From positions 1 to 44,859 of the IMG/VR virus record IMGVR_UViG_3300017747_003010: 44,859 nucleotides of DNA; one strand, written 5' to 3'. Below, in pieces: positions 19,059 to 43,742 of this stretch. The notes beneath the pieces are model-generated. The model saw only the letters and a program-made list of their open reading frames with translations. It searched no databases and was not told the DNA's origin. Both the position numbers and the translations under genes were made by a program. The stretch's first letter is position 1; every line of letters begins with the position of its first letter. This stretch comes from a virus. Taxonomy: Duplodnaviria > Caudoviricetes.

Positions 19059-19096
19059 AAGAGGCTTGGTCTAGCTAGGTCTCTTTATTATATTTA
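19059..19096 (+). terminator. Hairpin terminator candidate overlapping a host-type promoter
   Basis: AAGAGGCTTGG/CTAGGTCTCTT stem (3 G-U) then TATTATATTT; also TTGGTC-N17-TATATT. Confidence 0.5.
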
Positions 19097-19101
19097 TGCA
19101 G

Positions 19102-19899
19102 ATGATAAAACTAGTAGATTTATTAAAAGAAATACAAGGTTCACCAAAAGCTATAATAATGGCTGGAGGAGCATCAGTAGGTAAATCAACAATCTTAAAA
19201 ACAATTGATTCACAATTAGGTGGGTTTGAAAATCTAAATGCTGATAAGTATGTAGAAGATAAAGATTCACCAATGTATGGTAATTTATCAGCTGCTTCAT
19301 CTCAAATAAGAAAACAAGATTTACCTAACGCTATAGCAGCTAAACGTAATTTAATTTACGACACCACAGCGTCTAATCTATCTACACTTCAACCAACATT
19401 AGATATGTTAAAAGAAGGTGGATATGATGTTATGATGTTGATGGTTTATGCTCACCCAATAGTATCATTTTTAAGAAACTATAAACGTGAACGTAAGGTA
19501 CCAGCTGCTGGTGTTTTAGGAACTTGGGCTAATGTTTACAATTTGTTAGACGAGTATAAAAACATATTCGGAGATAATTTTATTTTAGTAAATACACCAT
19601 CAGGCCCAGAGGAAGAAGCAGAAATCGCTAATTTTGAAAAAGCATATCAAGATGGTACTTTAAAAGAATATTTTGATAATTTGTTATCTACAGGTCAATT
19701 TACTTCATCATTTAGAAAAGATGATACTGAGTTGTCACCTGAAGAAAAAGCTAAACGAGAAAAATCAAGAGAAAAAACAAAACAACAACTTTATCAAAAT
19801 ATAGATAAAATAGCTAATACTTACGGGGATATTCAATCTAAATTAAATCCTATAGATAGTAAACAATTACCTACTATTATTAATAATTTTATTAAATGA
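19102..19899 (+). CDS. Zeta-toxin-like P-loop kinase
   Basis: IIMAGGASVGKST Walker A, NADKY, LIYDTT, RN.KRERKVP; probable start MIKLVDLLKE (track starts 19096). Confidence 0.75.
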   Translation: MIKLVDLLKEIQGSPKAIIMAGGASVGKSTILKTIDSQLGGFENLNADKYVEDKDSPMYGNLSAASSQIRKQDLPNAIAAKRNLIYDTTASNLSTLQPTLDMLKEGGYDVMMLMVYAHPIVSFLRNYKRERKVPAAGVLGTWANVYNLLDEYKNIFGDNFILVNTPSGPEEEAEIANFEKAYQDGTLKEYFDNLLSTGQFTSSFRKDDTELSPEEKAKREKSREKTKQQLYQNIDKIANTYGDIQSKLNPIDSKQLPTIINNFIK

Positions 19900-21527
19900 A
19901 CTCATTAACTAGATCACTCATATCATCATTTTTAACTGAGGCAACTCAAGAAACTATAGGTGTTTTTGGAGGTGGGTTTCAACCACCAACAAAAGGTCAT
20001 TTTGAAGTAGTTAAGAGAGCATTAGACGAAAATCCAACATTAGATAAATTTATTATATTTGTTGGGACAGGGGGTGGTAGATCAAATATAACTCAAGCTC
20101 AAACAGCTAAAATTTGGGAGATATATAAAAATTATTTATCACCAAAGATTGAAATACAACCATCAGCTAACCCTATTACTGATATTTACCGTCTAGCTAA
20201 AAATAACCCAGATGTTAAAATTAAGTGGTTTTTAGGTTCTAGAGAAGGTAATGAAGATGATTTTCTTCAATTTGATAAACGTACTAAAGCGGTAGATGAT
20301 AAACTCAATTTAGAACCAATTAATATTGTAACTGCTAACATAGCTAGTGGTACAGCTGCTAGAGCAGTATTAGATAATAAAGATTTATTCTTTACTTTTT
20401 TACCTAAAATAGAACTAAAAGACAAAGAAGAAATATATAGTATTTTACAAGGAGTATCAGAAGATGAAGAAATAACAACTTGGGTTAATGAAGTTGTACC
20501 TGAACCTGAAATTGATGATATTGATGATTACGCAGATGATGTGTTAGACCCTATTGATATTGATATTCCTCCTCATTTTATTGATAGAGTCAATGATAAA
20601 CGTAATCGCCCTGAAATTGAGACAGATGAGTTATATGATTTCTTCGATAAACTATCAGATGAAAAAGATGAATTAACAACTTTATTAGATCAAGGGGAAG
20701 TAGTAGCAACAGACTTAGACACTGATATTAATATTCCATTAACTAAAGATATTAGGAAAAGCCAATTGCGTGATAAAGTAGTAGCGGTGGCTAAAACTAT
20801 AATGCGTAAACCTAATTTTCAAACTACTAGTAATAAATTAACATTTGAACAAGTTCAAGGTGATAGTATAGTTTGTGATGGTTGTGGTTGGACTTGGAAA
20901 ATAGAAGATGGTGGAGATGATTTATTTATCTGTCATAAATGCGGTCATGATAATACACCTAAAGAAGACTTAAATAACTTTTTTGAACCATTACAAGATA
21001 AACAATTAGACCTAAATATATCCTCAGAACCAACAAGAGTAGATTATTATAAAAATTATTATAAAAATTTATCTCCACCAGATTTTAAAATAGATAAAGA
21101 TAAAGATAAAATTATAATATCTAATATTAATAAAAATGGTTTAGAAAACAATCCTGAATTTAAAGAATTGTTAGTATCATTAACAATGCATATGATGGAT
21201 CATATTGATATTGAACCATTACCTGATTTAATATTCATTGAAGATGATACTGAAAATGCTAAGGATTTGTTAGGCAAAACAGCATACTACAACCCAGATG
21301 ATAAATCAATCACTCTATACACATATGGACGTCATCCTAAAGATATATTACGTTCGTATGCTCATGAAATGATTCATCATAAACAAAACTTAGAAGGTAG
21401 ATTAACAAATATTCAAGGTCACAACATAAATGAAGATGATTACCTAAAAGAATTAGAAGCAGAAGCTTATACTTATGGTAATGGTTTATTATTTAGAGGT
21501 TGGGAAAATTCATTAGAAAATGATTAA
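19896..21527 (+). CDS. Multimodular protein: HIGH-type nucleotidyltransferase + HF.DR module + Zn ribbon + HExxH metallopeptidase-like domain
   Basis: GGGFQPPTKGH and SGTAAR (cytidylyltransferase-like); PHFIDRVNDKRN; CDGC..CHKC; LRSYAHEMIHHKQ...E.EAY. Confidence 0.7.
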   Translation: MNSLTRSLISSFLTEATQETIGVFGGGFQPPTKGHFEVVKRALDENPTLDKFIIFVGTGGGRSNITQAQTAKIWEIYKNYLSPKIEIQPSANPITDIYRLAKNNPDVKIKWFLGSREGNEDDFLQFDKRTKAVDDKLNLEPINIVTANIASGTAARAVLDNKDLFFTFLPKIELKDKEEIYSILQGVSEDEEITTWVNEVVPEPEIDDIDDYADDVLDPIDIDIPPHFIDRVNDKRNRPEIETDELYDFFDKLSDEKDELTTLLDQGEVVATDLDTDINIPLTKDIRKSQLRDKVVAVAKTIMRKPNFQTTSNKLTFEQVQGDSIVCDGCGWTWKIEDGGDDLFICHKCGHDNTPKEDLNNFFEPLQDKQLDLNISSEPTRVDYYKNYYKNLSPPDFKIDKDKDKIIISNINKNGLENNPEFKELLVSLTMHMMDHIDIEPLPDLIFIEDDTENAKDLLGKTAYYNPDDKSITLYTYGRHPKDILRSYAHEMIHHKQNLEGRLTNIQGHNINEDDYLKELEAEAYTYGNGLLFRGWENSLEND

Positions 21528-22020
21528 ATTAAAAGAGTTATTAGAAGAAGTTGAAAAAGACAAATATACTATTTATTGTGATTTAGATGGTGTATTAGTT
21601 GATTTTGAAAAAGGTTACGAAGAGGCAACAGGTAAACCATTTAGTGAGGCAGGTGAAGGTCCTGAATTTTGGGAACCAATACATAAAATGGGAGCTGCAT
21701 TTTGGATTAAATTAAAATGGTTACCTGATGGTAAAGAGTTATGGAATTATATCGCCCCATATAACCCAACATTACTATCAGCCCCATCACAAGAAGAATC
21801 ATCTAAAATAGGTAAACGAGTATGGAAGAAAAATAATCTACCAGATGCTAAAATGATTTTAACACCAGCTAGATTTAAACAAAAATACTCAGGAGAGAAT
21901 AAAATACTTATTGATGATATGGAAAAAAATATACAACAATGGAGAGATAAAGGTGGAATAGGAATATTACATACATCTACAGCAGACACAATTAAACAAT
22001 TAAAAGAATTAGGATTATGA
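21520..22020 (+). CDS. HAD-family 5'(3')-nucleotidase-like phosphatase
   Basis: IYCDLDGVLVDF motif I, LLSAP, K..W, LIDD..KN...W...GG.GILH. Confidence 0.85.
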   Translation: MIKLKELLEEVEKDKYTIYCDLDGVLVDFEKGYEEATGKPFSEAGEGPEFWEPIHKMGAAFWIKLKWLPDGKELWNYIAPYNPTLLSAPSQEESSKIGKRVWKKNNLPDAKMILTPARFKQKYSGENKILIDDMEKNIQQWRDKGGIGILHTSTADTIKQLKELGL

Positions 22021-22589
22021 AATATAGTTTAGTAAAACTAATGGAAAATGAAGGTGATGAAACTACTTTTTCTATTGGAAAAATATCAAATGATGTAAAG
22101 TTAACTCCATTAACAAAAACATCTGATGAAATTATTAGTATCATTAATGATCCTAAAAATTATAAAACATCTTTTATTAAAAATCCTACTTTAGTAAAAC
22201 AAGCAAAAGAAAATTACTTTGGAGTTGGAATACCACCAGCAGTTAAAAACTCAATGGAAAAAGATTTTTCTACTTTAAGTAAAGAAGAATGGATAGTAAA
22301 AAATAAAAAATATAAAGATCTTGAAAAAAAGTATAAAACATTATCTAATAATAATGGTAAATTTCATACCTATACAAAAGATACTAACACAGCGTTAGAA
22401 GCAGAGTTAAATTATATTCCCAAACCTACAGATTTATCACCAAATAAAGAAAAAAATTATATTCGTTTTATTCCTAATGATGTTGTAACTTACAGTAAAA
22501 TCGAAAGAAGTTTAGAAAAAATATTAACAAGTGCTGGTCTTAAAAAAGAAGAAGATTATACTATAACAGCAATACCCTCAAAATCATAA
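22017..22589 (+). CDS. Hypothetical protein
   Basis: 190-aa ORF, ATGA overlap with upstream gene. Confidence 0.65.
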   Translation: MKYSLVKLMENEGDETTFSIGKISNDVKLTPLTKTSDEIISIINDPKNYKTSFIKNPTLVKQAKENYFGVGIPPAVKNSMEKDFSTLSKEEWIVKNKKYKDLEKKYKTLSNNNGKFHTYTKDTNTALEAELNYIPKPTDLSPNKEKNYIRFIPNDVVTYSKIERSLEKILTSAGLKKEEDYTITAIPSKS

Positions 22590-22592
22590 GTT

Positions 22593-23165
22593 ATGGCAGA
22601 AAATGTTTTGAAAAAAGAATTTAAAGAAAAAGATATACAACGTCTTCGTAATTTAGTTCAAGGTAAATACGGTGAAAAAGCAACATTAAGTTCAGGTTAC
22701 ACTAAACAGCAAGAGTTCCATGAAGAAGGCGATATATGGGAAGAAGATGATCGTACTTGGACTATTAAAAATGGTATTAAACAAAATATCACTAAACTAG
22801 ACGCGGCTAAAAAGGAGATTAATCTACCATTATTTTGCCCATGCTGTAGTAAAGTAATGAAACCACATTTAGATAAAGCATTTTACCTACAACATAAAAG
22901 ATGCTTCAACTGCCAGGTAGACTTTGAAGCTGACCTTAGAAAAAAAGGATTACTTGAAGAATATGAAAAATTTGTCATCAACTCAGATATTGATGGAGTA
23001 ATACAAGAATTTAATATTTGGATAGACGAAGAAATAAATACATCTAATGAGTCATGGGTCACTGAAGCTGGTGAAGTAGAAAAATGGGTTGGGTCATCTA
23101 AACAAAAACTTCTTGAAAGTAAAGAAGAAACCATTAAGTATCTTGAGAGTTTGAAGAAACAGTAA
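22593..23165 (+). CDS. Hypothetical Zn-finger protein
   Basis: CPCC...CFNC; GDIWEE..RTWTIKNGIKQN. Confidence 0.65.
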   Translation: MAENVLKKEFKEKDIQRLRNLVQGKYGEKATLSSGYTKQQEFHEEGDIWEEDDRTWTIKNGIKQNITKLDAAKKEINLPLFCPCCSKVMKPHLDKAFYLQHKRCFNCQVDFEADLRKKGLLEEYEKFVINSDIDGVIQEFNIWIDEEINTSNESWVTEAGEVEKWVGSSKQKLLESKEETIKYLESLKKQ

Positions 23166-23174
23166 ATATTTATA
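23166..23174 (+). promoter_or_regulatory. Late-promoter-like motif ATATTTATA
   Basis: In 21-nt gap before ATG 23187. Confidence 0.5.
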
Positions 23175-23186
23175 ATAAAATTTACT

Positions 23187-23549
23187 ATGGATTTTGCTAA
23201 ATTAATTTCATATTTATTCCATTCTCAAACTCAAACTCACATATTTCATTTACAAACACAATCATATGCTGAGCATAAAGCATTACAAAAGTATTATGAA
23301 GGTATTGATGAATTAATAGATGGTATAGTGGAAGCATATCAAGGTAAATATGGTATAGTAAAAGGTTATTCTAATTTTAACTTAATGGAATATAATAATG
23401 TCCAACAAGTAATAGCATACTTAGATACACTTTGTAAAGCTGTTTATGCTACTTATGAAACAATTGAGGACAGTTATATCCTAAATCTATTAGATGGTAT
23501 CACAGAATTAATCAAATCTACCATCTATAAACTTCAAAATCTACGATAA
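23187..23549 (+). CDS. Ferritin/Dps-like four-helix protein (DUF5856-like)
   Basis: HIFHLQT.SYAEHKAL..YY..I..L.D..VE.YQG pattern. Confidence 0.7.
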   Translation: MDFAKLISYLFHSQTQTHIFHLQTQSYAEHKALQKYYEGIDELIDGIVEAYQGKYGIVKGYSNFNLMEYNNVQQVIAYLDTLCKAVYATYETIEDSYILNLLDGITELIKSTIYKLQNLR

Positions 23550-24157
23550 TGAAAAAAACACATGAGGCTAAACTTCACCCTGAAGAAAAAGAAATATTTC
23601 GTAATTGGTTAGATCAATTTAAAGAAGAAGGAGATAAGCAAAAAAAAGTCAATAAAGTAGTCGCTGCTAGAAAAGAACTAGATCGTGTTAGAAAAGACAT
23701 AACTAATGACGAGTACCAAGAAGCTAAAAAATACATTGATTCTAAAGCTAAAGAATGGGGAATTGAAGAAAATAATATTTATAGTAAAAATACAATGAAC
23801 GAATTAAGAACAGTAATAAACAAACTTGTTAAAGAGGAACTTGCTTTATTTGAAAAGAAAAAGAAAGAAGAAGAACCTACTGATGAGTTAGAATTAGATT
23901 TAGACACACCACAAGGTGATGAATCAGTAAATATAGAAGCCCCAGTTGAAGAACCAGCGACAGACACTGAACCAAACATGGATATGTCAGGTGGAGATTC
24001 AACAGAAAAAACTATTGGTAAAGGATTACAAATGGCTTTAGACGCGGCTAAACAACTACCAGATAGTGAAACTAAAAGTAAATTAATTCGCCAAATCGGA
24101 AATACAGCTTTGTTCTTCCTTAAGACTCAGATTCCAACAGGAAGTGAACAAGCATAA
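23549..24157 (+). CDS. Hypothetical acidic protein, with possible internal start at 23795
   Basis: 202-aa ORF; in-frame MNELRTVINKLVKEE preceded by ATATTTATA at 23775. Confidence 0.6.
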   Translation: MKKTHEAKLHPEEKEIFRNWLDQFKEEGDKQKKVNKVVAARKELDRVRKDITNDEYQEAKKYIDSKAKEWGIEENNIYSKNTMNELRTVINKLVKEELALFEKKKKEEEPTDELELDLDTPQGDESVNIEAPVEEPATDTEPNMDMSGGDSTEKTIGKGLQMALDAAKQLPDSETKSKLIRQIGNTALFFLKTQIPTGSEQA

Positions 24158-24180
24158 TACAAACAAATAAAATAAAATCT

Positions 24181-24354
24181 ATGAACAGTCAAGAGTTATT
24201 AGAAAAGTTGCATGGTTTACTAGAAGATCTAACAGCAGAACATGCTAAAGGATCTAAAGCAGCACAAGGACGCGCTCGCAAGATTGCAGGTGAAGTTAAA
24301 AAAGTAGCTAACGAGTATCGTAAAGCTTCTGTTGCTGAAAGCAAAACAAAGTAA
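24181..24354 (+). CDS. Histone H1-like Hc1-family small DNA-binding protein (57 aa; not in ORF track)
   Basis: Translated by hand: MNSQELLEKLHGLLEDLTAEHAKGSKAAQGRARKIAGEVKKVANEYRKASVAESKTK; matches Hc1 pattern KG.KAA..R.R....K....YRK.S; A-rich leader and downstream hairpin. Confidence 0.8.
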   Translation: MNSQELLEKLHGLLEDLTAEHAKGSKAAQGRARKIAGEVKKVANEYRKASVAESKTK

Positions 24355-24368
24355 GACATCAAAAAACA

Positions 24369-24399
24369 GTTATAGGGGAGCAAAGCTCCCCTTAACTTT
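24369..24399 (+). terminator. Intrinsic terminator-like hairpin
   Basis: AGGGGAGC-AAA-GCTCCCCT stem extendable by GTTA/TAAC, followed by TTT. Confidence 0.65.
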
Positions 24400-24411
24400 A
24401 AACTAAAAAGT

Positions 24412-25071
24412 ATGCCATACGAAAGAAAAGGAAAATGCGTTTATAATAAAGAAACAGGTAAGAAGAAAGGATGTTCTTCATCTGTTGCTAAGGCAAAGGC
24501 ATACTTAAAAGCATTATATGCTTCTGAACCAGAAGCTGCTAAAGAAGGATTATCACAAGGTGTTAAAGATAGAGCAGAAGGTATATATCAAGCAATTACA
24601 AAAGATCCTAAAGCGGTTAAAAACGCTATTAAAAAATATAAAAAAGAAGCTCAAGACGTATTATACGGAAGAGCAGTTAATATAGCTAAAAATCAAGTGC
24701 AACCTATGAACGAAGAAAGATTAAAAAAAGCAATCAAAAATGTCACTGAAAAATTAAAAGGTGGACAAAAGAAATTAGACGCTAATAAAAATGGAAAAAT
24801 TGATGCTGAAGATTTTAAATTGTTAAGAAAAGTTCATGAGGAAATTGATTATGAAGGTGAAATGGCTAAATCTGAACTTTATCGTTTAGTAGACAACGCT
24901 AAAAAATTAATGAGTATGCTTGATGACGATACTCAACTAGAAGGATGGGTACAAAGTAAAATCACCAAAGCAAATGACTACATAAACTCAGTTACACAAT
25001 ACTTAGAGTACCAATCAGTTAAATTAAATTCAATTGAAGAGAAAGCTGAGGAATATATCATAAAGAAATAA
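24412..25071 (+). CDS. Modular putative head-internal protein with EF-hand-like motif
   Basis: Basic N-module; LDANKNGKIDAEDF EF-hand-like loop; EGEMAKSEL...WVQSKITKA module. Confidence 0.6.
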   Translation: MPYERKGKCVYNKETGKKKGCSSSVAKAKAYLKALYASEPEAAKEGLSQGVKDRAEGIYQAITKDPKAVKNAIKKYKKEAQDVLYGRAVNIAKNQVQPMNEERLKKAIKNVTEKLKGGQKKLDANKNGKIDAEDFKLLRKVHEEIDYEGEMAKSELYRLVDNAKKLMSMLDDDTQLEGWVQSKITKANDYINSVTQYLEYQSVKLNSIEEKAEEYIIKK

Positions 25072-25072
25072 A

Positions 25073-25606
25073 ATGACTAATAGAAAGGAAATAGAAGATA
25101 AAATTAGAACAGTACTTAGACGAGTATATAGTACTAAGATTCAAAAAGATACTTTAGGTGTTACACCTGAAGATGTTGACTTTGATAAAGAAACATTTCC
25201 TATCTTAGCACAATTTGAGAACTTAAGACAAGTTTTAATTAACCTGTTAACTAAACAATACGAAGATTTTATTAAAGATATTTGGTGGGTAGCTCCACGC
25301 CCCACTACATTTAAAATCATTTTAGCTAATGATCAATTCTTTTATTTGATATATGGTGAAAGATCATGGACTGCTAAAGTAGAAGGTAAAAAATATTATT
25401 TAATGAATATTAGTGAAGAAGAAAGAGCAGCTGAAGCAATAGCCCGCATACTAATGTATGGAACAAGTGGTGGTGAAAAAGAAGAAGTAAGCGGAGAAGT
25501 CCCAACAGGAGGAGAAACACCAGCAGATGAAACCACCCCAGAAGCACCAGCAGAAGAAACACCACCAACTGAAGAAGAAACACCAGCAGAAACAGTACCA
25601 GCATAA
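25073..25606 (+). CDS. Hypothetical protein with acidic Pro-rich tail
   Basis: PRPTTFKI.L.N core; C-terminal ETP repeats. Confidence 0.65.
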   Translation: MTNRKEIEDKIRTVLRRVYSTKIQKDTLGVTPEDVDFDKETFPILAQFENLRQVLINLLTKQYEDFIKDIWWVAPRPTTFKIILANDQFFYLIYGERSWTAKVEGKKYYLMNISEEERAAEAIARILMYGTSGGEKEEVSGEVPTGGETPADETTPEAPAEETPPTEEETPAETVPA

Positions 25607-25935
25607 TGAAAACAATAAATAAGTTTATAAAAGATAATTGGTTTACTATACTACCTTGGTTTCTAGCTATAGCATTTTTAGTTCATTTATTAATAAAACC
25701 TGAACCTCCAAGACCAGTTGAACCACCTAAAGATAATCGTATTGATAGTTTAAGTCATATAGTTGATTCACTTAATATCGAGTATAATAAATTAAAACAT
25801 AATTACGACAGCGCACAAGCCAACGCTCGAGTAGAAATTCAAAAAATCTATATCCAAAATGCTAAAGACGTTTCTAACATTCGCTCTTACACTGTTGATC
25901 AACGCGACAGTATGTGGTCAACTCTTAACCCCTAA
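25606..25935 (+). CDS. Putative inner-membrane spanin-like protein
   Basis: N-terminal TM helix, Pro linker, coiled coil; overlaps next gene by 77 nt. Confidence 0.5.
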   Translation: MKTINKFIKDNWFTILPWFLAIAFLVHLLIKPEPPRPVEPPKDNRIDSLSHIVDSLNIEYNKLKHNYDSAQANARVEIQKIYIQNAKDVSNIRSYTVDQRDSMWSTLNP

Positions 25936-26311
25936 ACGTATTGTTTTAGGTGGAGACACAGGTATATTCTTTACTAATAAACAAGAAGTTGAATTATTAG
26001 TAAAATTCAAACAATTTGAAGGTTGTAAGTTAGAAGTAGCAAAATGGAAAAAATATGCTGATGATGCTGATTCACAAATTGATAGAGAAAGAGAAGCATA
26101 TGATGCTTTAGATAAACAATTTGACAGTATGCTTTTAGTAGCTAAAGATTTTGAAAAAAAGTATAATGATGAGTATACTGCTCATGAAAATACTAAAATT
26201 AAACTAGCTGAAATGACCACTAAAAAAGATAAATGGGTTAAAGCAACATTTATCACTGGTGGAGTTTCATTAGTAATAATCACACCTCTAGTTTATTTAT
26301 TAGCTAGGTAA
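25859..26311 (+). CDS. Putative spanin partner (signal peptide, coiled coil, C-terminal TM)
   Basis: MLKTFLTFALTLLINATVCG|Q signal; C-terminal hydrophobic FITGGVSLVIITPLVYLL. Confidence 0.5.
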   Translation: MLKTFLTFALTLLINATVCGQLLTPKRIVLGGDTGIFFTNKQEVELLVKFKQFEGCKLEVAKWKKYADDADSQIDREREAYDALDKQFDSMLLVAKDFEKKYNDEYTAHENTKIKLAEMTTKKDKWVKATFITGGVSLVIITPLVYLLAR

Positions 26312-26323
26312 ATATTTATCGAT

Positions 26324-27307
26324 ATGAATATATTCGATAAATTTCTTAACAGTGTTTCTTATAAATTTCCTAAGGGTTACCCAGACATGAGTAACCCTAA
26401 TGATGTTTTATTACTTAATTCTTTAATAAATGAGACATTAGGAGAAGATATAAATTTAAATGAAATGGGAATTTTAACTGAAACTGATAGTTCATTTGAT
26501 GAACGAATAAAAGCAGCTTTAGGAGTTAATGATATCCCAAAATGTAAAACCCCATTACAAGTAGGTCAATCTTTTAATTTAAGAGGAGACGATGAAAAAA
26601 TTTGGGCTGTATTATACCCAGTTAAACCATTAAAAGCTGACGGTACACCAACAGCCGGATCAGGAAATGGAGAAGTGGCTACTTATTGGGCTTACCAACA
26701 TAATATAAAATCAATAGATGTTATAGATGGTAGAGGAGGTAAAGGAGGAGAAAACCCAGATTTAATTATTGGTGGAGTTGGAGTTGAAGTTAAAGCATAT
26801 GACACTAAAACTATTACTTTAGGTAAATTTGGAACTGACACAGAAACAATCAGTCTTTTAAATAAAGTATTTGGTACATTATCATTATTTAATGAAGAAA
26901 CTATTAAAGCTAACACAGGTAATTTTAAACCTCAAGATTTATTAAATGGTTTTAAAATTATATCTGAAATTTATTCTAATAATGATTTAAAAAAATTAGA
27001 TATAGCTAAACCTTTTTTTAGTAAGATAGATACTTTATATAAAACATTAGGATTAGATTCTAACTCAACCCCTGAAGAAGCAACTATAGCTTTACTACGT
27101 AAACTTTTATGGACAAAGTTAATTAAAAAACCTAATATGAATCAAGAAGTAGGGTATATTTTAAATGTTAATGCTACTGGAAAAGGAGAATACACAGAAA
27201 TAACTAAAGCAATTATAGACAGTATCCCAGATGAGAATATCTTAAATAATGGAGTTACAGTTAAATCATCTGAAATATCAATGAACTTTAATCAATTGTT
27301 TAAATAA
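26324..27307 (+). CDS. PD-(D/E)xK restriction-endonuclease-like protein with N-terminal leader
   Basis: GNGE...PDLIIGGVGVEVKAY catalytic-type motif; leader with INE, LNE, LTE. Confidence 0.55.
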   Translation: MNIFDKFLNSVSYKFPKGYPDMSNPNDVLLLNSLINETLGEDINLNEMGILTETDSSFDERIKAALGVNDIPKCKTPLQVGQSFNLRGDDEKIWAVLYPVKPLKADGTPTAGSGNGEVATYWAYQHNIKSIDVIDGRGGKGGENPDLIIGGVGVEVKAYDTKTITLGKFGTDTETISLLNKVFGTLSLFNEETIKANTGNFKPQDLLNGFKIISEIYSNNDLKKLDIAKPFFSKIDTLYKTLGLDSNSTPEEATIALLRKLLWTKLIKKPNMNQEVGYILNVNATGKGEYTEITKAIIDSIPDENILNNGVTVKSSEISMNFNQLFK

Positions 27308-27927
27308 TGAAACAACCAAATAAAAAATGTGATTGTGGAGCACCTCTATTAAATGAGTCTCTTCAACATAAAATGCCTATATCGGAAGCAATGCGATATC
27401 ATTTGGGTAATAACATTCAAGTGCATAATAACATATTCCGCCCTGGTTCTAAAGCTCACATTGAATTACTCAATGAAACTCGCTTATTATGGGTTAAAGG
27501 TATTATTAAACTTCAAGATGCTGATAAAAGATTATTTGAAAATACTGATTTAGGTCGTTTTGGAATGTTTGAAGGTGAAATAGTACCTTTAGATTTACCA
27601 ATGATGGAAATTGAAATATTAACAGAAGTAGAGTTAGAAGAAGAAAAGAAACAACCTGCTTTAGGAAAACCAAAACGTGGTGGATCTAAAAAATTCTATG
27701 TTTATGTTAAAGATCCTAAAACTAAACGTATTAAAAAAGTATCATTTGGTATGGCGGGTGGTGGATTACGTGCTAAATTAAACAATCCTAAAGCACGTCA
27801 AGCGTTTTCAAAAAGACATGATTGTCCTAATAAAAAAGACAGAACAAAGGCGTCGTACTGGTCATGTCGCGTCCCCAGATATTCTAAGTTGTTAGGATTC
27901 AAAACCACTTTTACCGGTTATTGGTAA
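27307..27927 (+). CDS. Two-module hypothetical protein with basic C-terminal domain
   Basis: YHL...FRPGS..H module; KKFYVYVK...VSFG...AR.AF..RH.C...YWSC module. Confidence 0.65.
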   Translation: MKQPNKKCDCGAPLLNESLQHKMPISEAMRYHLGNNIQVHNNIFRPGSKAHIELLNETRLLWVKGIIKLQDADKRLFENTDLGRFGMFEGEIVPLDLPMMEIEILTEVELEEEKKQPALGKPKRGGSKKFYVYVKDPKTKRIKKVSFGMAGGGLRAKLNNPKARQAFSKRHDCPNKKDRTKASYWSCRVPRYSKLLGFKTTFTGYW

Positions 27928-27944
27928 GGTAAGCGACACCCCCA

Positions 27945-27953
27945 ATATTTATA
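27945..27953 (+). promoter_or_regulatory. Late-promoter-like motif ATATTTATA upstream of homing endonuclease
   Basis: 15 nt before ATG 27969. Confidence 0.5.
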
Positions 27954-27968
27954 ATAAATGGAGGGAAC

Positions 27969-28595
27969 ATGGCTTATGTTTATCTTATAACTAATATTAT
28001 TAATAATAAAAAATATATTGGATCTTCTAGAAAGACTCAAGTTGATGAAAACTATTATGGTAGTGGAAAAGCATTAAAAAATGCTTTAAAAAAACATGGT
28101 AAAGAAAATTTTATTAGAGAAATATTATGGGAAGGTGAGGGAGATGCTCGAGTTATGGAAACATATTATTTGACAAAATTTAACGCGGCTGGGAATTCAA
28201 TGTTTTATAATATGACTAATGATGCTAGAGGAAATAATCTTCATAAAGAAGAAACTAAAAAGACAGTTAGTGAAAAACTAACAGGACGTAAATTTTCAAA
28301 AGAAATTTGTGAAAAAATATCTAAAGCTAAAACAGGTTCAACAACATCTAAAAAAGGTAAATCTGATGGCCCTAAACCTAATGTATCTAAAGCTCATAAG
28401 GGTAGAGTAAGTCCTAATAAAGGAAAGGGTAATCCTGTGGCTTTATATAAAATATCAGGTGAATACATCCAAACATATCCTAGCTATCATGATTTAGCTC
28501 TTGATCTTCAAATTAACCCAGAAACAGTAAGATGTCAACTTATTGGGAAAGCTCAAACTATTAAGAATAAGCAATATAGGGCTCAATATGTATAA
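27969..28595 (+). mobile_element. Free-standing GIY-YIG homing endonuclease with NUMOD3-like repeats
   Basis: YVYLITN.IN.KKYIG, YYGSG, F.REIL, YN; HKEETKKTVSEKLTGRKFSKEICEKISKAK and SPNKGK NUMOD3-type motifs. Confidence 0.85.
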
Positions 28596-28599
28596 TCAT

Positions 28600-29232
28600 A
28601 TGAAACTAACACACATACTTAAACAACTCCTTGAGGAGCAAAAGAAAAAAGCAGATCGCTGTAAGCGTATTGCTGATCGTCGATATGATAAGCCATCTGC
28701 TTACAAATCAGGTGCTATTGTTAGATGTCGTCAAGGTAAAATCTGGAAAGATTTAAAAGAAGATAATAAACCCTCAAAAGAAATATATCAGCAAGCCTTA
28801 AAAGATATTAAACCATTAATACCTGTTTTATCACATAATCTTATTCATCAACAAGGTTTAGAACATAATGATAAAAATATGATTAAATTAAATCAAGAAA
28901 TATTTGATTTAGTTGAAAAAGGAGATGATGATACTCTTGATAAATTATGGGATTTAGCAGGAAATTCATTATTAAAAAATGCTATAAATATTATTACATT
29001 TTATCATAAATCTAATTTAACTGAAGATGAATCATTACATAAATGGTTTAAACGTAAAGGAGCACCTGGTAAAGAAGGTGGGTGGGTAGACTGTAATACA
29101 TGCCGTAATGGTAAATGTAAATCATGTGGTAGAAAAAAAGGTGAAAAACGAGCTAAATACCCTTCATGTCGCCCTACACCATCTCAATGTAAAACCAAAG
29201 GTAAAGGTAAAAAATGGGGGAAAACAAAATGA
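28600..29232 (+). CDS. Modular basic Cys-rich hypothetical protein
   Basis: Start moved to MKLTHILKQLLEE; PSAYKSGAIVRCR module; SLHKWF...WVDC...CGR...YPSCRP module. Confidence 0.65.
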   Translation: MKLTHILKQLLEEQKKKADRCKRIADRRYDKPSAYKSGAIVRCRQGKIWKDLKEDNKPSKEIYQQALKDIKPLIPVLSHNLIHQQGLEHNDKNMIKLNQEIFDLVEKGDDDTLDKLWDLAGNSLLKNAINIITFYHKSNLTEDESLHKWFKRKGAPGKEGGWVDCNTCRNGKCKSCGRKKGEKRAKYPSCRPTPSQCKTKGKGKKWGKTK

Positions 29233-29477
29233 TTAAATTAATAGACTTACTAGAAGGTAAACAAGAGGAAAAATACCCTCCTTACATGTACTCCCCAGTA
29301 GGGTTTGGCTGTCATGTCTGTGAGTATTATTATATGGAAGATAAAAAACATTACTGTAATAATAAAGAATACCAAAAATATAAAGGTACTAATGAATTAG
29401 TAGATGATAACGGTAACCAAATTAAAGATCCATCTAAATGGTGTTCTAATTGGTTTCATCCTAAAACTGAAGAATAA
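29229..29477 (+). CDS. Small Cys-rich (CxxC...C...C) protein
   Basis: Start at ATGA overlap, MIKLIDLLE; CHVCEYY...C...WCSNW. Confidence 0.65.
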   Translation: MIKLIDLLEGKQEEKYPPYMYSPVGFGCHVCEYYYMEDKKHYCNNKEYQKYKGTNELVDDNGNQIKDPSKWCSNWFHPKTEE

Positions 29478-29483
29478 TTGTCC

Positions 29484-29492
29484 ATATTTATA
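29484..29492 (+). promoter_or_regulatory. Late-promoter-like motif ATATTTATA
   Basis: 13 nt before ATG 29506. Confidence 0.5.
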
Positions 29493-29505
29493 ACAAATTA
29501 TTTTC

Positions 29506-32193
29506 ATGAAAAAAATTGCTATATTATTAGAATATATTAATGAAAACTATGATATCTTAGCAGAGGTATATGGTCAAAAGGTTATAGATACTATAAAGGC
29601 TGACTTTAAAAAACAAATGGAAGATAACCCTGGAGTCCCAGGATTTTCTGATCCAATCACTAAAAAACCATTTACTGATGCTCAATTAGATCAATTTATT
29701 AGTGCTTTTGATAAATTAAGAAGCAATTTACCTTCTCCTCAAAATGATATATACAATTATACAACATTAAAGGATGAATTTGAACTAGATGATTTCTTTT
29801 CACTTTTAGCTAATAAAGATAAAACAACTACAGAAAAAGAAAAAGAACTAGAGATACCAGATTTAATATACTCTAGTGAAGATGGTAATATAAAATTATT
29901 TAATGGTAATAGAGAAGATTTATGTACTCGATTTAAAGGAGAAGTTCCATGGTGTATAACTAAAGGAAGTTGGGCAGGATATAGATATAGCTCACGAAAT
30001 GGTTATCCAACATTCTATTTAGTTAAAAACTCTAACTTACCAGATGATAACGCGTTAAGTTTTGTAGCTATACAATCTAGAGCTAATGATAACTGGGTTT
30101 ATACTAATAGAAAAAACAGCCCATATGAGTCTCGTGTAATGACTTTTGATGAATTATTAAGAGAAGTTCCATGGTTATCTGAGATTCCTAATGTTAAATC
30201 TAAAATGCCTTGGGTTGATATTACAGATACTGAAAGAGAAGAACAAGAATATAAAAATACCCCAGTCTCATACTCTACTTGGAATTTATATTTTACACCA
30301 ACACAAAAACTAAGATATTTTAATATTAGAAGTACAGGTAATAATCCTGTAAAACTTTTTGATGATATGTCCCAAGAGAAATTTGTCTCTGACTATCTCC
30401 CAAAATTAGATAAAAATTTAAAGGAAAGTATCATTAGAAATCAACTAGTTGAAATGAAGTATCTAGTAGATAACTATGATAATCCTAATTTCACTGACTC
30501 AGATAAAAAATTAATATTAAGGTTTTACCTTCAAGAAGGTAGATTATCAATAAAACAAGCTGAAGAATTATTAGCTAAAACAACTGTTCCATTTGAACTA
30601 AAAAAAGATATAGTTAATAATGATAAGATAACTAAAAATGATGATCGAAGATTTTTTGTATCATCTAATGGAAATGACATTATTGAATTAATGTTTGAAA
30701 ACAGATTTCAAGATGTTGCTATTAGAGTATTTAAACTTAAACCTAATGGTACAACTGTTTCAAAAGTATTTGATAAGGTCTCATCAACAATAGCTTCTAA
30801 ATATTTATCTGTTTACCCTGATATAGACACACTTCCATTTAGTGTTATATTAAAATTAGTATCATCAGACGCAGCTACACCAGATTTAATTAAAAAAGTT
30901 ATTGATAAAGCTAAAACTGATGAAGAATCAGCTTTACTCGCTAAACAATTAGAAGATGGTTCAACTTTACTTATAGATACTAACGCCTTTACTGCTTATA
31001 AAATAGTAAATAATAAAGTAACATCATTACCATTTTCTAGTGAAGAAGTTCAAAATTCCTTAACTGACGCAGGAGAAAATGAAAAAATAACAAATAATAT
31101 ATTAAGTGTATTTACTAATGAAACGGGTAATATTCCTAGTAATATTTCTAAAGATGCTCTTTTAACTCTTGTTAACAGCATCCCACCTCAAAATAGAGTT
31201 GTTACATTATCAGGTACTCCGTATATTTTAAAACCAGCCGCAGATGATAATGATAATAAATTATTTACTCTTATTCCAACTCTTAAAGATGGAGTAACAG
31301 CTTTTAGAATATGGGTAAATAGAAATGATGAATATTGGAGACGAGCTAGTTATGATACTTCTATCCTTACACCTGAGTATTGTCAATTAATTTTTAATTA
31401 TCTTAGAAGTCAAAATATGACCTATACTAACAGAGATCTTATGGGAATATTTGGTAGTAATATAGGTAGAAGTCCACGTGGTTTTAGAGCTTTTATTGAT
31501 AATAACCCACCATTAGATAGTGCTAATACTTTAAGACCTATAATGTATGAAGATAGTCCATACTTACTTAACACTCAAAACCCAAGAGAAAGTTATAGAT
31601 TAGGAACTACTGGTAGAATACTTAATAAATCATTCTCACCTAGAGAGGTAGCAGCGATTACAGGACAACCAGCCCCAGCGGCTACTAGAAGAGGTAGACA
31701 ACCAGGAGCAGCCGCAGCAGCTACACCACCTGCAGCTGCTGGCCAAGTAAATGATGCTGTACGACAAGCAATTGATGCTGCAGGTTTAACCACTGGATTT
31801 AATGCTTTACCCACACCGCTTAAAAATAGAATATTATCAGGTACAGTAGTAGATAATGACAGTGGGGCAACAAGTCGTAATAGAGCATTAGGAGATAGAG
31901 GACGAGTTATGAGAATTATATCTGCTGGTCAAAGTAAAATGTATCTCATTCGATTATCAGCTAGTGGTACTATGATAGCTCAAGCCTCATTCCAACCTGA
32001 AGCAAGACACTTTATTATAACCTCTAATACTGCGTTTAATATGGGTAGAGTAGGTAACTTTATAGATGCATTAGATGCTCGTAACTTAAGAGAAAACGAA
32101 AAAAATATTTTAAAAAGAATAGCTCTAGGAGCAGCCACTAAAGAAGAGTTAGAAGAAATAAAATTAAAAAATATAAAAAATGAAGATCAATAA
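29506..32193 (+). CDS. Large hypothetical protein with PcfJ-like WCI motif
   Basis: 895 aa; PWCITKGS...Y...TFYLV; Ala/Pro linker before C-terminal module. Confidence 0.6.
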   Translation: MKKIAILLEYINENYDILAEVYGQKVIDTIKADFKKQMEDNPGVPGFSDPITKKPFTDAQLDQFISAFDKLRSNLPSPQNDIYNYTTLKDEFELDDFFSLLANKDKTTTEKEKELEIPDLIYSSEDGNIKLFNGNREDLCTRFKGEVPWCITKGSWAGYRYSSRNGYPTFYLVKNSNLPDDNALSFVAIQSRANDNWVYTNRKNSPYESRVMTFDELLREVPWLSEIPNVKSKMPWVDITDTEREEQEYKNTPVSYSTWNLYFTPTQKLRYFNIRSTGNNPVKLFDDMSQEKFVSDYLPKLDKNLKESIIRNQLVEMKYLVDNYDNPNFTDSDKKLILRFYLQEGRLSIKQAEELLAKTTVPFELKKDIVNNDKITKNDDRRFFVSSNGNDIIELMFENRFQDVAIRVFKLKPNGTTVSKVFDKVSSTIASKYLSVYPDIDTLPFSVILKLVSSDAATPDLIKKVIDKAKTDEESALLAKQLEDGSTLLIDTNAFTAYKIVNNKVTSLPFSSEEVQNSLTDAGENEKITNNILSVFTNETGNIPSNISKDALLTLVNSIPPQNRVVTLSGTPYILKPAADDNDNKLFTLIPTLKDGVTAFRIWVNRNDEYWRRASYDTSILTPEYCQLIFNYLRSQNMTYTNRDLMGIFGSNIGRSPRGFRAFIDNNPPLDSANTLRPIMYEDSPYLLNTQNPRESYRLGTTGRILNKSFSPREVAAITGQPAPAATRRGRQPGAAAAATPPAAAGQVNDAVRQAIDAAGLTTGFNALPTPLKNRILSGTVVDNDSGATSRNRALGDRGRVMRIISAGQSKMYLIRLSASGTMIAQASFQPEARHFIITSNTAFNMGRVGNFIDALDARNLRENEKNILKRIALGAATKEELEEIKLKNIKNEDQ

Positions 32194-32551
32194 ATTAAAA
32201 GAAATTATTCGTGAAGAGTTAGCTTCTATTAAAGAATTAGGATTTGATTATCCTGGTAAAACTAAATCATTAGATTTAGATCAAGAATCTGAAGATTACC
32301 GTCGTGGGTATACTGATGGTTTAAGAGATGGATATGATAGAGGATTTAAAGATGCTGAAACTGTAAGTGAATCTGAAACAAAAGAAGCGCCACCTAAAAC
32401 TACACCTAAAACAAAACCAGGTAACCCAGGTTTAACTCCAACACCCGGTAAAACTCCTAAAGAAAGACCAGCTAAAGCTAAAACAAATGAAGATAAAGCA
32501 GCTACTTTAGTAAAAGGAATCATGAATAAGTATAAAAAACTAAAGAAATGA
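32180..32551 (+). CDS. Hypothetical protein with KEIIREE leader and Pro/Lys/Thr-rich tail
   Basis: Y..GY.DG..DGY..GF repeat; PKTTPKTKPG. Confidence 0.65.
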   Translation: MKINKLKEIIREELASIKELGFDYPGKTKSLDLDQESEDYRRGYTDGLRDGYDRGFKDAETVSESETKEAPPKTTPKTKPGNPGLTPTPGKTPKERPAKAKTNEDKAATLVKGIMNKYKKLKK

Positions 32552-33912
32552 AAAAACTCCATGAAATGAAATATAGCGATATATTCAAAGACCCAGAAAC
32601 AATGTCTGGTGTTGAAAGAAGAAACGCTGAAACTAGAGCTAAATTACTAGGCAATGATTCTTTGATGAAGATAATGCAAAAATCTCAAGTATTGCTTAGT
32701 CAATTAATGTCAGCTGAAGCACCATATAAGACTCAGTTAGAAGAATTAGCTGTAGAAATGGTTAAAAAAATGTACCCAATTATTGATGAATATAATATCG
32801 AAATTGAGGCTACATTAGGTCAAGATCAATTACCTCCTCCTCCCCCTAAAGGAAAAGAAGAGGAAGAAGAAACACCTATGCCTTCTGAAGATCAACCTGA
32901 TCTTAAAAATGATGAAGTAGCTAAAAGACGTCTTATTAACGCTATTACTCAAGGAGCATCAATCTATGGTTCATTAGAAAAACCATTTGTGGATTTTTTA
33001 GATGATGTAGATGATAATCTATTACAAAGATATAGTGCTGTAGTTACAAATCTTGATGACTCAGTTTCTAAATATGGAGATACATTAAAGAAAGTATTTG
33101 GAATATTTTATGATAAAGAAGCTGTAGCGATGTTATTAGCTATGTTAGCTGGTAACCCAGAAGGTTCAGGTGGTAAAGGTGGAGAATCAGATGCTAGCTT
33201 TGATGATGAAGGTAATTTAAAAATCAGAGCAACAGGTTTAGTATTCCCATTTTTAGTCCATGAAATTATTAAAGGATTATATGAAATAGTTTCACTTCAA
33301 GGATTTACTAAAGATGTTTCTACTAACCAAGCCACAGTAGCGGCAGCAGATAAATTAGAACACGAACCAGAAGACTTTGGTACCGGTACTCATATATTAA
33401 GTGATTTAAGAGCATTATATAATAATGCTAATGTTCGTAATAAAATATCATTTGAATTATTTTTAGCTAATATATATCGAGAAGATGACGCTAAAGCATT
33501 TGTTGAATTTATTGAAAACTTACTAAACAATAGAATAACACCAGCACAAAAACGTTGGGCTGAAGATCATATGGAACCAACTCCTGATATTGAAGATGAA
33601 GATGATGATGATATAGATAATATCAACTTACCTGATTTTGGTTTAAATGAATCTAAACCATATAAAGATCTTGAAGTCACAGATGAATACATTATTCGTG
33701 AGTTTAATGAAAATATTGATCCAATTGAATTAAAATGGCACCGTGATAAAGAAGATCGTGTTGTTGAAATCATAGGTGAAACTGATTGGAAGATACAATT
33801 AGAAGATCAACTACCAACTTCTATAAATGAGTCAATATTTATACCAAAAGGACAATGGCATCGTGTTATTAAAGGTAATGGTACATTGACATTGAAGATA
33901 AACAAAAAATGA
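32548..33912 (+). CDS. Hypothetical protein with C-terminal cupin module
   Basis: KRRLINAITQG, FP.L.HEIIKG.YE core; after GLNE: WHRD.EDR...IFIPKGQWHRVIKG cupin motifs. Confidence 0.65.
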   Translation: MKKLHEMKYSDIFKDPETMSGVERRNAETRAKLLGNDSLMKIMQKSQVLLSQLMSAEAPYKTQLEELAVEMVKKMYPIIDEYNIEIEATLGQDQLPPPPPKGKEEEEETPMPSEDQPDLKNDEVAKRRLINAITQGASIYGSLEKPFVDFLDDVDDNLLQRYSAVVTNLDDSVSKYGDTLKKVFGIFYDKEAVAMLLAMLAGNPEGSGGKGGESDASFDDEGNLKIRATGLVFPFLVHEIIKGLYEIVSLQGFTKDVSTNQATVAAADKLEHEPEDFGTGTHILSDLRALYNNANVRNKISFELFLANIYREDDAKAFVEFIENLLNNRITPAQKRWAEDHMEPTPDIEDEDDDDIDNINLPDFGLNESKPYKDLEVTDEYIIREFNENIDPIELKWHRDKEDRVVEIIGETDWKIQLEDQLPTSINESIFIPKGQWHRVIKGNGTLTLKINKK

Positions 33913-34283
33913 AACGATCTCGTTTAATAGAAATAATTAGAGAAGAACTTCAACTTATCTTAAAAGAAGAGTCCACTCAATATAATATTGAGGGGCTACT
34001 TCTTACTAACACTGAAGAACGCCCTCAAAAAGATATACTATCTGATATTAGATCATTACCTGGTGTAACAATTGTATCAAGTAAGGATTATGATTTATCA
34101 GGCGAAACATCAGCATTTAGTAATCCTAACTATTATACAATAATTAAGATTAAAGTAGATCCACATCCATATCCTAATGGGTTCACAGATGAAGATCTAC
34201 AACAATTATTTACTGATATTAGAGCAATTAAAGGTGTTCGAAACTTTAAATTAAATAAATCTATAGAGAAAAAAACTGTTTAA
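33909..34283 (+). CDS. Small alpha/beta (ACT/ferredoxin-like) hypothetical protein
   Basis: DIRSLPGVTIV and DIRAIKGV internal duplication. Confidence 0.6.
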   Translation: MKRSRLIEIIREELQLILKEESTQYNIEGLLLTNTEERPQKDILSDIRSLPGVTIVSSKDYDLSGETSAFSNPNYYTIIKIKVDPHPYPNGFTDEDLQQLFTDIRAIKGVRNFKLNKSIEKKTV

Positions 34284-34293
34284 TAAAACACAT

Positions 34294-34302
34294 ATATTTA
34301 TA
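34294..34302 (+). promoter_or_regulatory. Late-promoter-like motif ATATTTATA
   Basis: 16 nt before ATG 34319. Confidence 0.5.
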
Positions 34303-34318
34303 ATAAAATACAACAAAA

Positions 34319-35140
34319 ATGAAATTAGAAAATTTACGTACTCTTATTCGTGAATCAATTAATGAGTATATTAAAGAAATAGATGAAGCTGGTACTAGAG
34401 CAATGTATGAAGCTAAAATGACAGCTTGTGATAAAGCCATAAATGAAAGAAAACAGAAAATTGAAATGGCTGAATCATTAGAAGAAATGCAAGGCATGTT
34501 TGATGAAACCAAAATGGGTGAATTAAAAAAAGAAATCAAAATGCTTGAAAAGCAAAAAGCCAAGTATGGTAAAATGCTTGAAAAAATGAACAAAGCTAAA
34601 AAATCTGCTCCTAAGGATGAAAAAGAAGTAACTACTGATGCTCCTATTGATGAAACAGATGTAATGGCTGAAATGGATGTAACTGAAGAAACAACCGAAG
34701 AAGCATTAAATGAGTCATTCTTAAAAATGCAAAAATTGGCTGGTGTGATTACTGAAGCTCAATATAATCAAAGAAAAAGTTTAATTGAGAACCAATTAAA
34801 TGAAGAAAAAAAATTTACTGAGATATTAGGGATGAATGGATATCATTTAATGATAACTGACAAAATGGAACAAGACATAAAAAATCAGTTAGGTTTAGGA
34901 GATGAAGATATTAAATTTGGATACAATGAAGAACAAGGTAATCGCTTCTATTGGTGGGCCACTATAAATATTAATCTTGAAGCTTTACCTGAAGACAAAA
35001 AATCTTCTTACAATGACATAATCATGAAAATTGTTAGACCAGGAAAAACAGATGAAAAAGCAACAGTTCCAACTAACTCTCCTAAAACTACAAAACCTAG
35101 TGGTTTCTTTAATAAATTAAAATCTTCGTTTTCTAAATAA
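34319..35140 (+). CDS. Coiled-coil/acidic putative head-internal (core/scaffold-like) protein
   Basis: Many [ILV]-x-E sites; internal ESFLKMQKLAGVITE motif. Confidence 0.6.
   Translation: MKLENLRTLIRESINEYIKEIDEAGTRAMYEAKMTACDKAINERKQKIEMAESLEEMQGMFDETKMGELKKEIKMLEKQKAKYGKMLEKMNKAKKSAPKDEKEVTTDAPIDETDVMAEMDVTEETTEEALNESFLKMQKLAGVITEAQYNQRKSLIENQLNEEKKFTEILGMNGYHLMITDKMEQDIKNQLGLGDEDIKFGYNEEQGNRFYWWATININLEALPEDKKSSYNDIIMKIVRPGKTDEKATVPTNSPKTTKPSGFFNKLKSSFSK
34717..34743 (+). repeat. 27-nt dispersed repeat encoding FLKMQKLAG (copy 1)
   Basis: ATTCTTAAAAATGCAAAAATTGGCTGG vs copy at 41265, 1 mismatch. Confidence 0.8.
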
Positions 35141-41253: not shown

Positions 41254-41523
41254 ATGAATAAAGAATTCTTAAAAATGCAAAAGTTGGCTGGATTGATCAA
41301 TGAAAGCCAAGTTAAAGAGATAATTGGCGATATTGATGATACTCCATCTCCAGACGGAGATTTTGATCCAATGGATTATGCTGATGACCCAGCAGACTAC
41401 GATAAAGTTGCTTTTCTAGTAGACGCCTTCCAACATGTTTGGAATATGGGTAAAGGAAACAATACAGTTGATTTTAATGATTTAGCTAAATCTACTATCA
41501 AAGATTTGGAAACTAGATTTTAA
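41254..41523 (+). CDS. Small acidic protein with MQKLAG leader
   Basis: MNKEFLKMQKLAGLINE; ATATTTATA at 41224. Confidence 0.7.
   Translation: MNKEFLKMQKLAGLINESQVKEIIGDIDDTPSPDGDFDPMDYADDPADYDKVAFLVDAFQHVWNMGKGNNTVDFNDLAKSTIKDLETRF
41265..41291 (+). repeat. 27-nt dispersed repeat encoding FLKMQKLAG (copy 2)
   Basis: ATTCTTAAAAATGCAAAAGTTGGCTGG. Confidence 0.8.
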
Positions 41524-43716: not shown

Positions 43717-43742
43717 TATTTATTGGTATAATTTAATATAAA

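Follow-up and report, generated by a model that had tools for sequence, protein, structure and literature searches.

Leaders resembling T4 capsid-targeting sequences on unrelated proteins of an Immutovirus-related phage

In phage T4, IPI, IPII and IPIII, which are internal proteins, and the Alt protein carry a short capsid-targeting sequence (CTS) at the N-terminus. Residues 4 and 7 of the CTS are described as responsible for targeting and residues 8 and 10 for processing, with the gp21 protease cutting after L/I-x-E (PMC9026906). T4 propeptides of 65 and 10 residues are given in a second account (PMC9958956), and the three internal proteins are all now known to be anti-defence factors (PMC12373910). 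Conserved N-termini on diverged bodies have been suggested to serve in targeting in the giant phages phiKZ and SPN3US (PMC5694885), and the N-terminal signal of DarB in phage P1 suffices to package a reporter (PMC9024508). Here, we examined a 44,859-nucleotide stretch of DNA from an uncultured, T4-like tailed phage of water (IMG/VR record IMGVR_UViG_3300017747_003010, hereafter called the window), in which many unrelated proteins start with a short leader ending in Glu. We consider it probable that about 10 unrelated proteins with swappable leaders, 3 of which are enzyme-like, represent an enlarged T4-type capsid-targeting system, in which the proteins would be loaded into the head, cut after the Glu by a gp21-type protease and delivered with the DNA. 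This reading was favoured because of the gp21-type protease, the T4 register of the leaders, the swapping of leaders, a late-type promoter box and the virion proteomes of distant phages.

The window is one whole contig of 44.9 kb with a G+C content of 30%, and nearly all of its genes are located on the plus strand. They are ordered as baseplate and tail genes, primase and exonuclease genes, the block of genes considered here (19102-35140), a MoxR-type AAA/vWA pair, a T4-type terminase gene and a gp20 portal gene, which is incomplete because the contig end cuts it. The nearest cultured phage is the Flavobacterium phage vB_FspM_immuto (Immutovirus; hereafter immuto), with a portal identity of 64.8%, a protease identity of 46.7% and the same gene order, and on this basis we refer to the phage as Immutovirus-related only. 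Its kinship with immuto suggests that the host belongs to the Bacteroidota. About 2,300 stored stretches matched the portal patterns. Neither tRNA genes nor Rfam matches were found in the window.

Leader classes and their distribution

The preliminary description had quoted 11 N-termini from the block, all of which translate exactly as quoted, and similar leaders on genes 3899 and 41254 outside the block (genes are named by their start positions). When the leaders were aligned at the Glu, they gave the 7-residue core [LIFMVY]-x-x-[LIFMV]-[LIV]-x-E, which was found in both of these outside genes, confirming their leaders. Stricter patterns defined 4 leader classes: class A (for example MKINKLKEIIREE), class B (MIKLVDLLKE), class C (MNKEFLKMQKLAGLINE) and class D (as in immuto MENFDLKKFLVE). 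The genes in question are the following:

3899..4246 (+): small gene, conserved and located ahead of the baseplate genes, class A leader (Glu12), promoter box at 3884
19102..19899 (+): zeta-toxin-like P-loop kinase (PF06414, E 2e-13), class B leader at 19102-19131 (Glu10)
19896..21527 (+): modular protein, leader at 19896-19940 (Glu15), the motif being present on 12 of 19 related N-termini
21520..22020 (+): HAD 5'-nucleotidase-like enzyme (phrog_2643, E 2e-25), class B leader at 21520-21549 (Glu10)
22017..22046 (+): loose leader MKYSLVKLME (Glu10) of an orphan protein, not matching the 7-residue motif
23795..24157 (+): acidic protein, class A leader at 23795-23836 (Glu14), own ATATTTATA box at 23775
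28600..29232 (+): two-module Cys-rich protein, leader at 28600-28638 (Glu13), internal L-T-E joint at 29017-29025
29229..29477 (+): class B-like leader MIKLIDLLE with Glu at position 9, not matching the strict motif
29506..32193 (+): 895-aa protein with no fold match, [LIV]-x-E at 9, 13 and 20
32180..32551 (+): low-complexity protein, class A leader at 32180-32215 (Glu12)
32548..33912 (+): untagged 454-aa protein, last module after an L-N-E joint at 33643-33651
33909..34283 (+): class A leader at 33909-33968 (Glu12, Glu20)
34319..35140 (+): class A leader at 34319-34366 and internal class C tag at 34715-34756 between two modules
41254..41523 (+): class C leader at 41254-41304 (Glu17), a copy of the scaffold C-terminal motif, promoter box at 41224

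The preliminary description had defined the leaders by an [ILV]-x-E ending. This triplet was present within the first 22 residues of 13 of the 22 block genes and 9 of the 27 others (Fisher p=0.065), while shuffling gave a mean of 9.2 (p=0.026). The ending is thus present, but its enrichment is only marginal, and the loose triplet was rejected as the motif in favour of a longer one. It also occurs in the AAA gene (E17), which had been listed as free of leaders. The 7-residue core was found in 8 of the 22 block genes, but in 0 of the 11 tail genes and 0 of the 8 replication and metabolism genes; outside the block, it was observed in 3899, 41254 and the terminase gene (42145). Among 5,000 shuffles of the same N-termini, the mean was 1.2 and the maximum 6, never 8, and internal 22-mers of the same proteins matched in 8 of 200 cases. 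By the comparison with replication genes and shuffled controls, which the preliminary description had named as a possible refutation, the longer motif is strong. The Glu residues in the leaders peak at positions 10 and 12.

Because the 7-residue core came from the window and T4, it was tested in 5 held-out genomes, namely G001, G002, G003, G006 and immuto, using a simple caller of open reading frames (ORFs) and regions assigned by eye from landmarks. The core was identified in 49 of 143 block genes, compared with 13 of 250 structural genes (p ~1e-13) and 45 of 724 genes in non-late regions (p ~1e-17). Strict leaders of classes A to D were present in 66 of the 1,337 N-termini of 6 genomes, against a shuffle mean of 1.5 and maximum of 5, with about 5 to 17 strictly tagged genes per genome. 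At 79 kinase loci, the core was carried by all 39 distinct kinase N-termini but by none of the 28 primases and none of the 26 exonucleases. Tagged genes also stood singly among replication and early genes in the complete genome G006. The counts per gene family and the scatter in G006 therefore indicate that the tag marks genes, not the block. About half of the block, which had been presented as a tagged set, is indeed tagged, but several of its conserved genes never are, and tagged genes also occur elsewhere. The proposal that the whole block is cargo was rejected, given the conserved genes that are never tagged and others of a non-cargo type, such as the membrane-protein-like 25606 and 25859, the GIY-YIG endonuclease 27969 and the Hc1-like gene at 24181-24354.

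Some further genes were noted. The Hc1 histone-like gene at 24181-24354 (+; 57 aa, PF07432, E 9e-11) lies in the block below the usual ORF cut-off and is conserved without a tag in relatives. Two overlapping genes at 25606-26311, mid-block, encode proteins with hydrophobic N-termini and coiled-coil bodies and are possibly a spanin-like pair. The sole long minus-strand ORF between genes, at 2024-2512 (-), probably encodes a lipoprotein from an internal ATG (MKKLILINLVTLLFTSC).

Leader register, exchange and late-gene context

The T4 record shows that IPII and IPIII start with MKTYQEFIAE and gp24 with MAKINELLRE, and that FGSFLTE ends at residue 65 of gp23. The class B leaders are in exact register with the IPII/IPIII and gp24 propeptides (Glu10), and the general features of such leaders (10 to 20 residues, hydrophobic positions 4 and 7, an L/I-x-E end) were observed in 8 of the 11 quoted leaders as well as in 3899 and 41254. 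Among the 120 best homologs of the 19102 kinase, 115 contained the motif, and L4, L7, L8 and E10 were nearly invariant (L, L, L and E in 114 to 115), whereas positions 5, 6, 9 and 11 to 14 were variable; the exceptions were 4 truncated calls and 1 class D swap. The motif preceded the domain in 77 of the 102 scorable homologs (of 120) of the HAD enzyme 21520, and in 10 of 34 at the kinase loci, where this enzyme is often fused behind other modules. Neither the kinase nor the scaffold gave a sequence match in PDB.

The strictly tagged genes, 72 in all, group into 52 clusters with unrelated bodies. Of the 13 clusters with several members, 5 contain mixed leader classes, and near-identical leaders occur on unrelated bodies. 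For example, the homologs of 23795 in G002 and G003 contain a class D leader instead, and the body of 33909 follows a class B leader in its G002 homolog. The start of 23795 is in frame within a longer ORF (23549-24157) but represents a separate gene in G001 and G006; since relatives keep two genes, the upstream gene seems to have been fused or to have lost its stop here.

Modules are also exchanged. The modules of 19896 (cytidylyltransferase-like, phrog_14518-like, a Cys4 finger and a C-terminal HExxH, all matched below curated cut-offs) occur separately in relatives. The second module of 28600, here behind the L-T-E, forms a gene by itself in the related locus L073, where a leader of its own precedes it, and the last module of 32548 occurs as a single gene in G001 and at 5 listed loci. 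Residues 31-112 of 34319 share 47% to 51% identity with a module that, in the head-core gene between the portal and the protease, comes after an L-N-E joint. In relatives, 29506 is fused to modules of 32180, 32548 or 33909, and in the 12 homologs of 29506 in which the body of 33909 is fused behind other proteins, all 12 keep only the last I-I-K-E site. A structural model of 29506 (predicted local distance difference test 78, predicted template modelling score 0.49) found no counterpart in PDB and only a single weak hit, viral and without a name, and ESM Atlas provided no usable name for 29506 or 32548.

The head genes are located next to the end of the window, which terminates inside the portal gene:

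42145..44858 (+): T4-type large terminase and gp20 portal, followed by head genes in L001, L022 and G006

In L001 and L022, the portals of which are 100% and 99% identical to that of the window, the portal gene is followed by 2 to 3 core genes and by genes for the protease, the scaffold and the capsid protein. The gp21-like protease, which the preliminary description had suggested should be sought downstream of the portal, was thus found in L001, L022 and also G006. It matched Peptidase_S77 (PF03420, E 6e-28) and the structure of T4 gp21 (5JBL, E 3e-13), and its His, Ser and Asp residues align opposite H85, S140 and D168 of T4 gp21, which we take to be the catalytic triad. The density of [LIV]-x-E sites per 100 residues was 6.4 in the scaffold, 7.4 in the core and 6.5 in residues 1-62 of the Gp23 capsid protein, compared with 0.6 in the rest of the latter and a range of 0.6 to 1.0 over this capsid body and 3 tail proteins, a contrast that partly reflects Glu content.

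The scaffold ends in R-[MW]-Q-x-L-A-G-[IL]. Distinct hits to this pattern comprised 25 scaffold C-termini, 12 N-terminal leaders, 2 internal sites and none elsewhere, and I-[TN]-E follows the N-terminal copies that were aligned, with one exception. From this placement and the I-[TN]-E that follows, class C is therefore read as the scaffold tail, copied and joined to a cut site. In other phages, the scaffold tail is taken to bind the capsid protein, and class C leaders may do so by analogy.

It was also noted that a class C leader is present on a 280-aa gene between the protease and the scaffold (G006:C1:156449) and on a 932-aa gene (G006:C1 12790), the scaffold-like part of which is without the Glu site. 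A Gly/Ala/Thr-rich peptide directly after a Glu (E-M-S-A-T-G-T-G type) recurs in the head-core genes of distant T4-like phages (L001:3184-3687; immuto 123355; S-CREM2 gp160; the end of Atu_ph07 gp53).

Many of the tagged genes are preceded by a promoter-like box, as in the case of the kinase:

19090..19097 (+): late-promoter-like ATATTTAT box before the 19102 kinase

Further copies precede 3899, 23187, 23795, 26324, 27969, 29506, 33909, 34319, 41254, the terminase and the portal. In the window, the ATATTTATA box is located ahead of late genes at 3884, 6497, 14114, 23166, 23775, 27945, 29484, 33835, 34294, 40192, 41224 and 42118, and there are 14 nine-base matches against a shuffle mean of 6.4. 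ATATTTAT was the most enriched 8-mer ahead of structural genes (25/92 vs 21/277), and TATTTAT was observed at most 60 nt upstream of 40 of 90 tagged genes and 160 of 985 other genes; in non-late regions only, the corresponding numbers were 14 of 45 and 75 of 679. We infer that the box is a late promoter, and its core, TATTTATA of ATATTTATA, is presumably the reverse complement of the T4 late promoter and two bases away from it.

A second box, TGTTATATTTA, precedes 36654, 37887 and 40977. In G001 and immuto, it was located before 0 of 92 structural genes, compared with 24 of 277 others. The region 36654-39080 encodes a vWA-metallopeptidase (DUF2201) and a MoxR-type AAA ATPase, and in group 2.2 jumbo phages such a pair has been proposed to take part in the assembly of virions (PMC7824862).

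Virion proteomes of distant T4-like phages

Published virion proteomes of 2 distantly related phages were compared. For the cyanophage S-CREM2, the virions of which were purified in caesium chloride (PMC10665884), we tested the 143 annotated ORFs gp1-83 and gp142-201, which lie outside the tail regions. The 7-residue core was present in 5 of the 18 detected and 5 of the 125 undetected proteins (p=0.003), and the core with Glu10 in 4 of the 18 detected and 0 of the 125 undetected proteins. These 4 proteins, gp6, gp13, gp14 and gp154, comprise a SAM (S-adenosylmethionine) lyase, a kinase, a small protein and a cytidylyltransferase. According to the authors of that study, kinases and cytidyltransferases are frequent in cyanophage virions (PMC10665884).

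In phage Atu_ph07 (PMC6102473; Supplementary Table S5 less one row), gp53 contains, between L/V-x-E joints, a module homologous to the 19102 kinase (E 7e-14), and it was detected in virions with 31 peptides (PMC6102473). The full protein is 87 kDa, but it peaks in gel band 9, in which 10 of the 12 other proteins are 18 to 24 kDa; the kinase module alone would be 23.0 kDa. In the range gp16-76, all 12 genes with a shorter leader (Glu8), picked by eye and mostly from a tandem array, are listed in the virion table. This array (L126:29484-40592, Atu_ph07 gp53-63) contains 11 virion-detected genes with a common eight-residue leader that ends in L-x-E. In the Pelagibacter phage HTVC008M, genes for a kinase, a cytidyltransferase and a nucleotidase are again neighbours, and only the kinase contains the core.

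Interpretation and comparison with known systems

Capsid targeting, as put forward in the preliminary description, remains the best explanation of the leaders, with the modifications that the motif is longer, that there are several leader classes and that only about half of the block is tagged. Several observations weigh against it. Packaging and cleavage in Immutovirus-like phages are predicted from genes alone. The 7-residue core was drawn after seeing the window, and the 5 test genomes are relatives and not independent draws. Only 8 of the 11 quoted leaders match the core (22017, 29229 and 29506 do not); homologs of 29506 contain a loose site in 26 of 27 cases, of which sites 9 and 20 are conserved, but the strict motif in 0 of 27. 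At the kinase loci, the core was never seen on homologs of 22593 (0/16), 23187 (0/9), 25073 (0/15) and 26324 (0/11), while the terminase, which is not expected as cargo, matches it here and in 29 of 45 relatives. The tagged bodies (median 148 aa) are mostly acidic, only 23 of 72 being net basic, unlike the basic T4 internal proteins. In S-CREM2, the core is absent from 13 of the 18 detected proteins in the tested range, the cytidylyltransferase shows only weak similarity to 19896 (E 0.012), and the authors allow for co-purification (PMC10665884). The Atu_ph07 leaders are a shorter variant that the 7-residue pattern does not match, that proteome also includes terminase, SSB and reductase from a preparation purified only with polyethylene glycol (PMC6102473), and the small gp53 band could reflect breakdown instead of processing. 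The terminase itself was rejected as cargo and is considered a probable chance helix, in that its Glu is often replaced by Asp or another residue.

A role mainly as disposable prohead core or filler, as for T4 gp67, gp68 and gp22, would also involve loading and cutting, without injected effectors. It would agree with the acidity and small size of the bodies, with the approximately 50% identity of the 34319 body to a module of the head-core gene adjoining the portal, with the class C gene between the protease and the scaffold in G006 and with the scaffold-tail copy in class C. We nevertheless regard it as unlikely, as several of the cargoes have enzyme folds that start directly after the Glu and whose motifs look intact, 52 unrelated bodies exceed the variety that a structural core needs, and homologous or same-family enzymes persist in mature S-CREM2 and Atu_ph07 virions.

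It seems more doubtful still that the leaders are helices of late proteins with another job, such as oligomerisation, docking to replication or assembly sites or signalling degradation, or a by-product of A/T-rich starts that are favoured for translation where the host lacks Shine-Dalgarno signals. The shuffles keep the N-terminal composition and yet destroy the signal, the contrast between kinase, primase and exonuclease comes from the same loci, the Glu is constant at the position known from T4, with variable neighbours, and the I-x-E site is kept in fusions. The fit of the terminase helix in relatives, the very A-rich gene starts with no obvious Shine-Dalgarno sequence and the 25073-like proteins, which have a similar helix minus the Glu, are the observations that such an explanation would account for. 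Finally, chance occurrence of common residues in an A/T-rich, Glu/Lys-rich proteome could account for the marginal loose triplet and for many of the matches to the 7-residue form in about 6% of non-late genes, but is very improbable overall, given the Glu peaks at 10 and 12 and the near-identical leaders on unrelated bodies, and refuted for the strict classes by their excess over shuffles.

According to the T4-type capsid-targeting explanation, the tagged genes would be expressed late, from the promoter box that they have in common with structural genes. The leader would fold into an amphipathic helix and bind to the prohead core, with class C probably binding the capsid protein in the manner of the scaffold tail and classes A, B and D probably binding the scaffold or core, as T4 leaders. 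The protease would then cut after [LIV]-x-E, freeing the leader and splitting multi-module chains at internal Glu joints, a step suggested by T4 and the Atu_ph07 gel data. In the last and least supported step, the freed kinase, nucleotidyltransferase, nucleotidase and small orphans may reach the next host and there act on nucleotides or defences ahead of phage gene expression; injection of the tagged proteins is our inference. More tentatively, we propose modular delivery with several address codes, in which class C takes the capsid-binding tail of the scaffold while the others bind the core, the protease also serves as a polyprotein processor, and at least 12 proteins, both enzymes and small effectors, are injected, being swappable via a tag of 10 to 20 codons; in cultured cyanophages and jumbo phages, the same rule would mark enzymes of the virion.

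If this is true, the tag rule would name, from sequence alone, proteins delivered at infection by very common uncultured water phages, supply screens for anti-defence and host takeover with a short list of candidates and explain the recurring kinases and cytidylyltransferases in cyanophage virion proteomes. It is open to direct test in a cultured relative.

The system resembles the T4 CTS of IPI, IPII, IPIII and Alt in that a short N-terminal leader with an L/I-x-E cut site precedes unrelated bodies, in the hydrophobic positions 4, 7 and 8 and the Glu at 10 of class B, and in the order gp20-core-gp21-gp22-gp23 with variable cargo behind a constant tag. It differs in having 4 leader classes instead of 1 and about 5 to 17 strictly tagged genes per genome instead of 3 internal proteins and Alt, and in its predicted cargo of enzymes and multi-module chains with internal joints. 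Moreover, class C copies the scaffold C-terminus, whereas T4 gp22 does not end in such a motif, and the bodies are unlike the small basic ones of IPI-III. No PHROG or Pfam match to the T4 internal proteins was found among the window proteins. As in phiKZ and SPN3US (gp175 and gp245 proteases), many head proteins would be cut after Glu, but their sites are S/A-x-E and mostly follow long propeptides, whereas this phage has a T4-type portal and capsid and short leaders. The signal is N-terminal as in DarB of phage P1, here as read from the genes, but the Dar proteins are without a common consensus, whereas the tag is a clear repeated motif. A literature search retrieved no immuto virion proteome and no paper on Mel-JY01, and among the openly available papers, the leaders in Immutovirus-like phages were not found described. 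In immuto, the gene order is the same and 10 strictly tagged genes of all 4 classes are present, but these are annotated mostly as hypothetical and class D is dominant. Tagged proteins of immuto are encoded, for example, by the genes at 1803, 24569, 25061, 102294, 103366, 111675, 117631 and 118632 of NC_055915.1. The principle is already that of T4; new here are the counts in held-out genomes, the register at the level of single residues and the comparison with 2 published virion proteomes.

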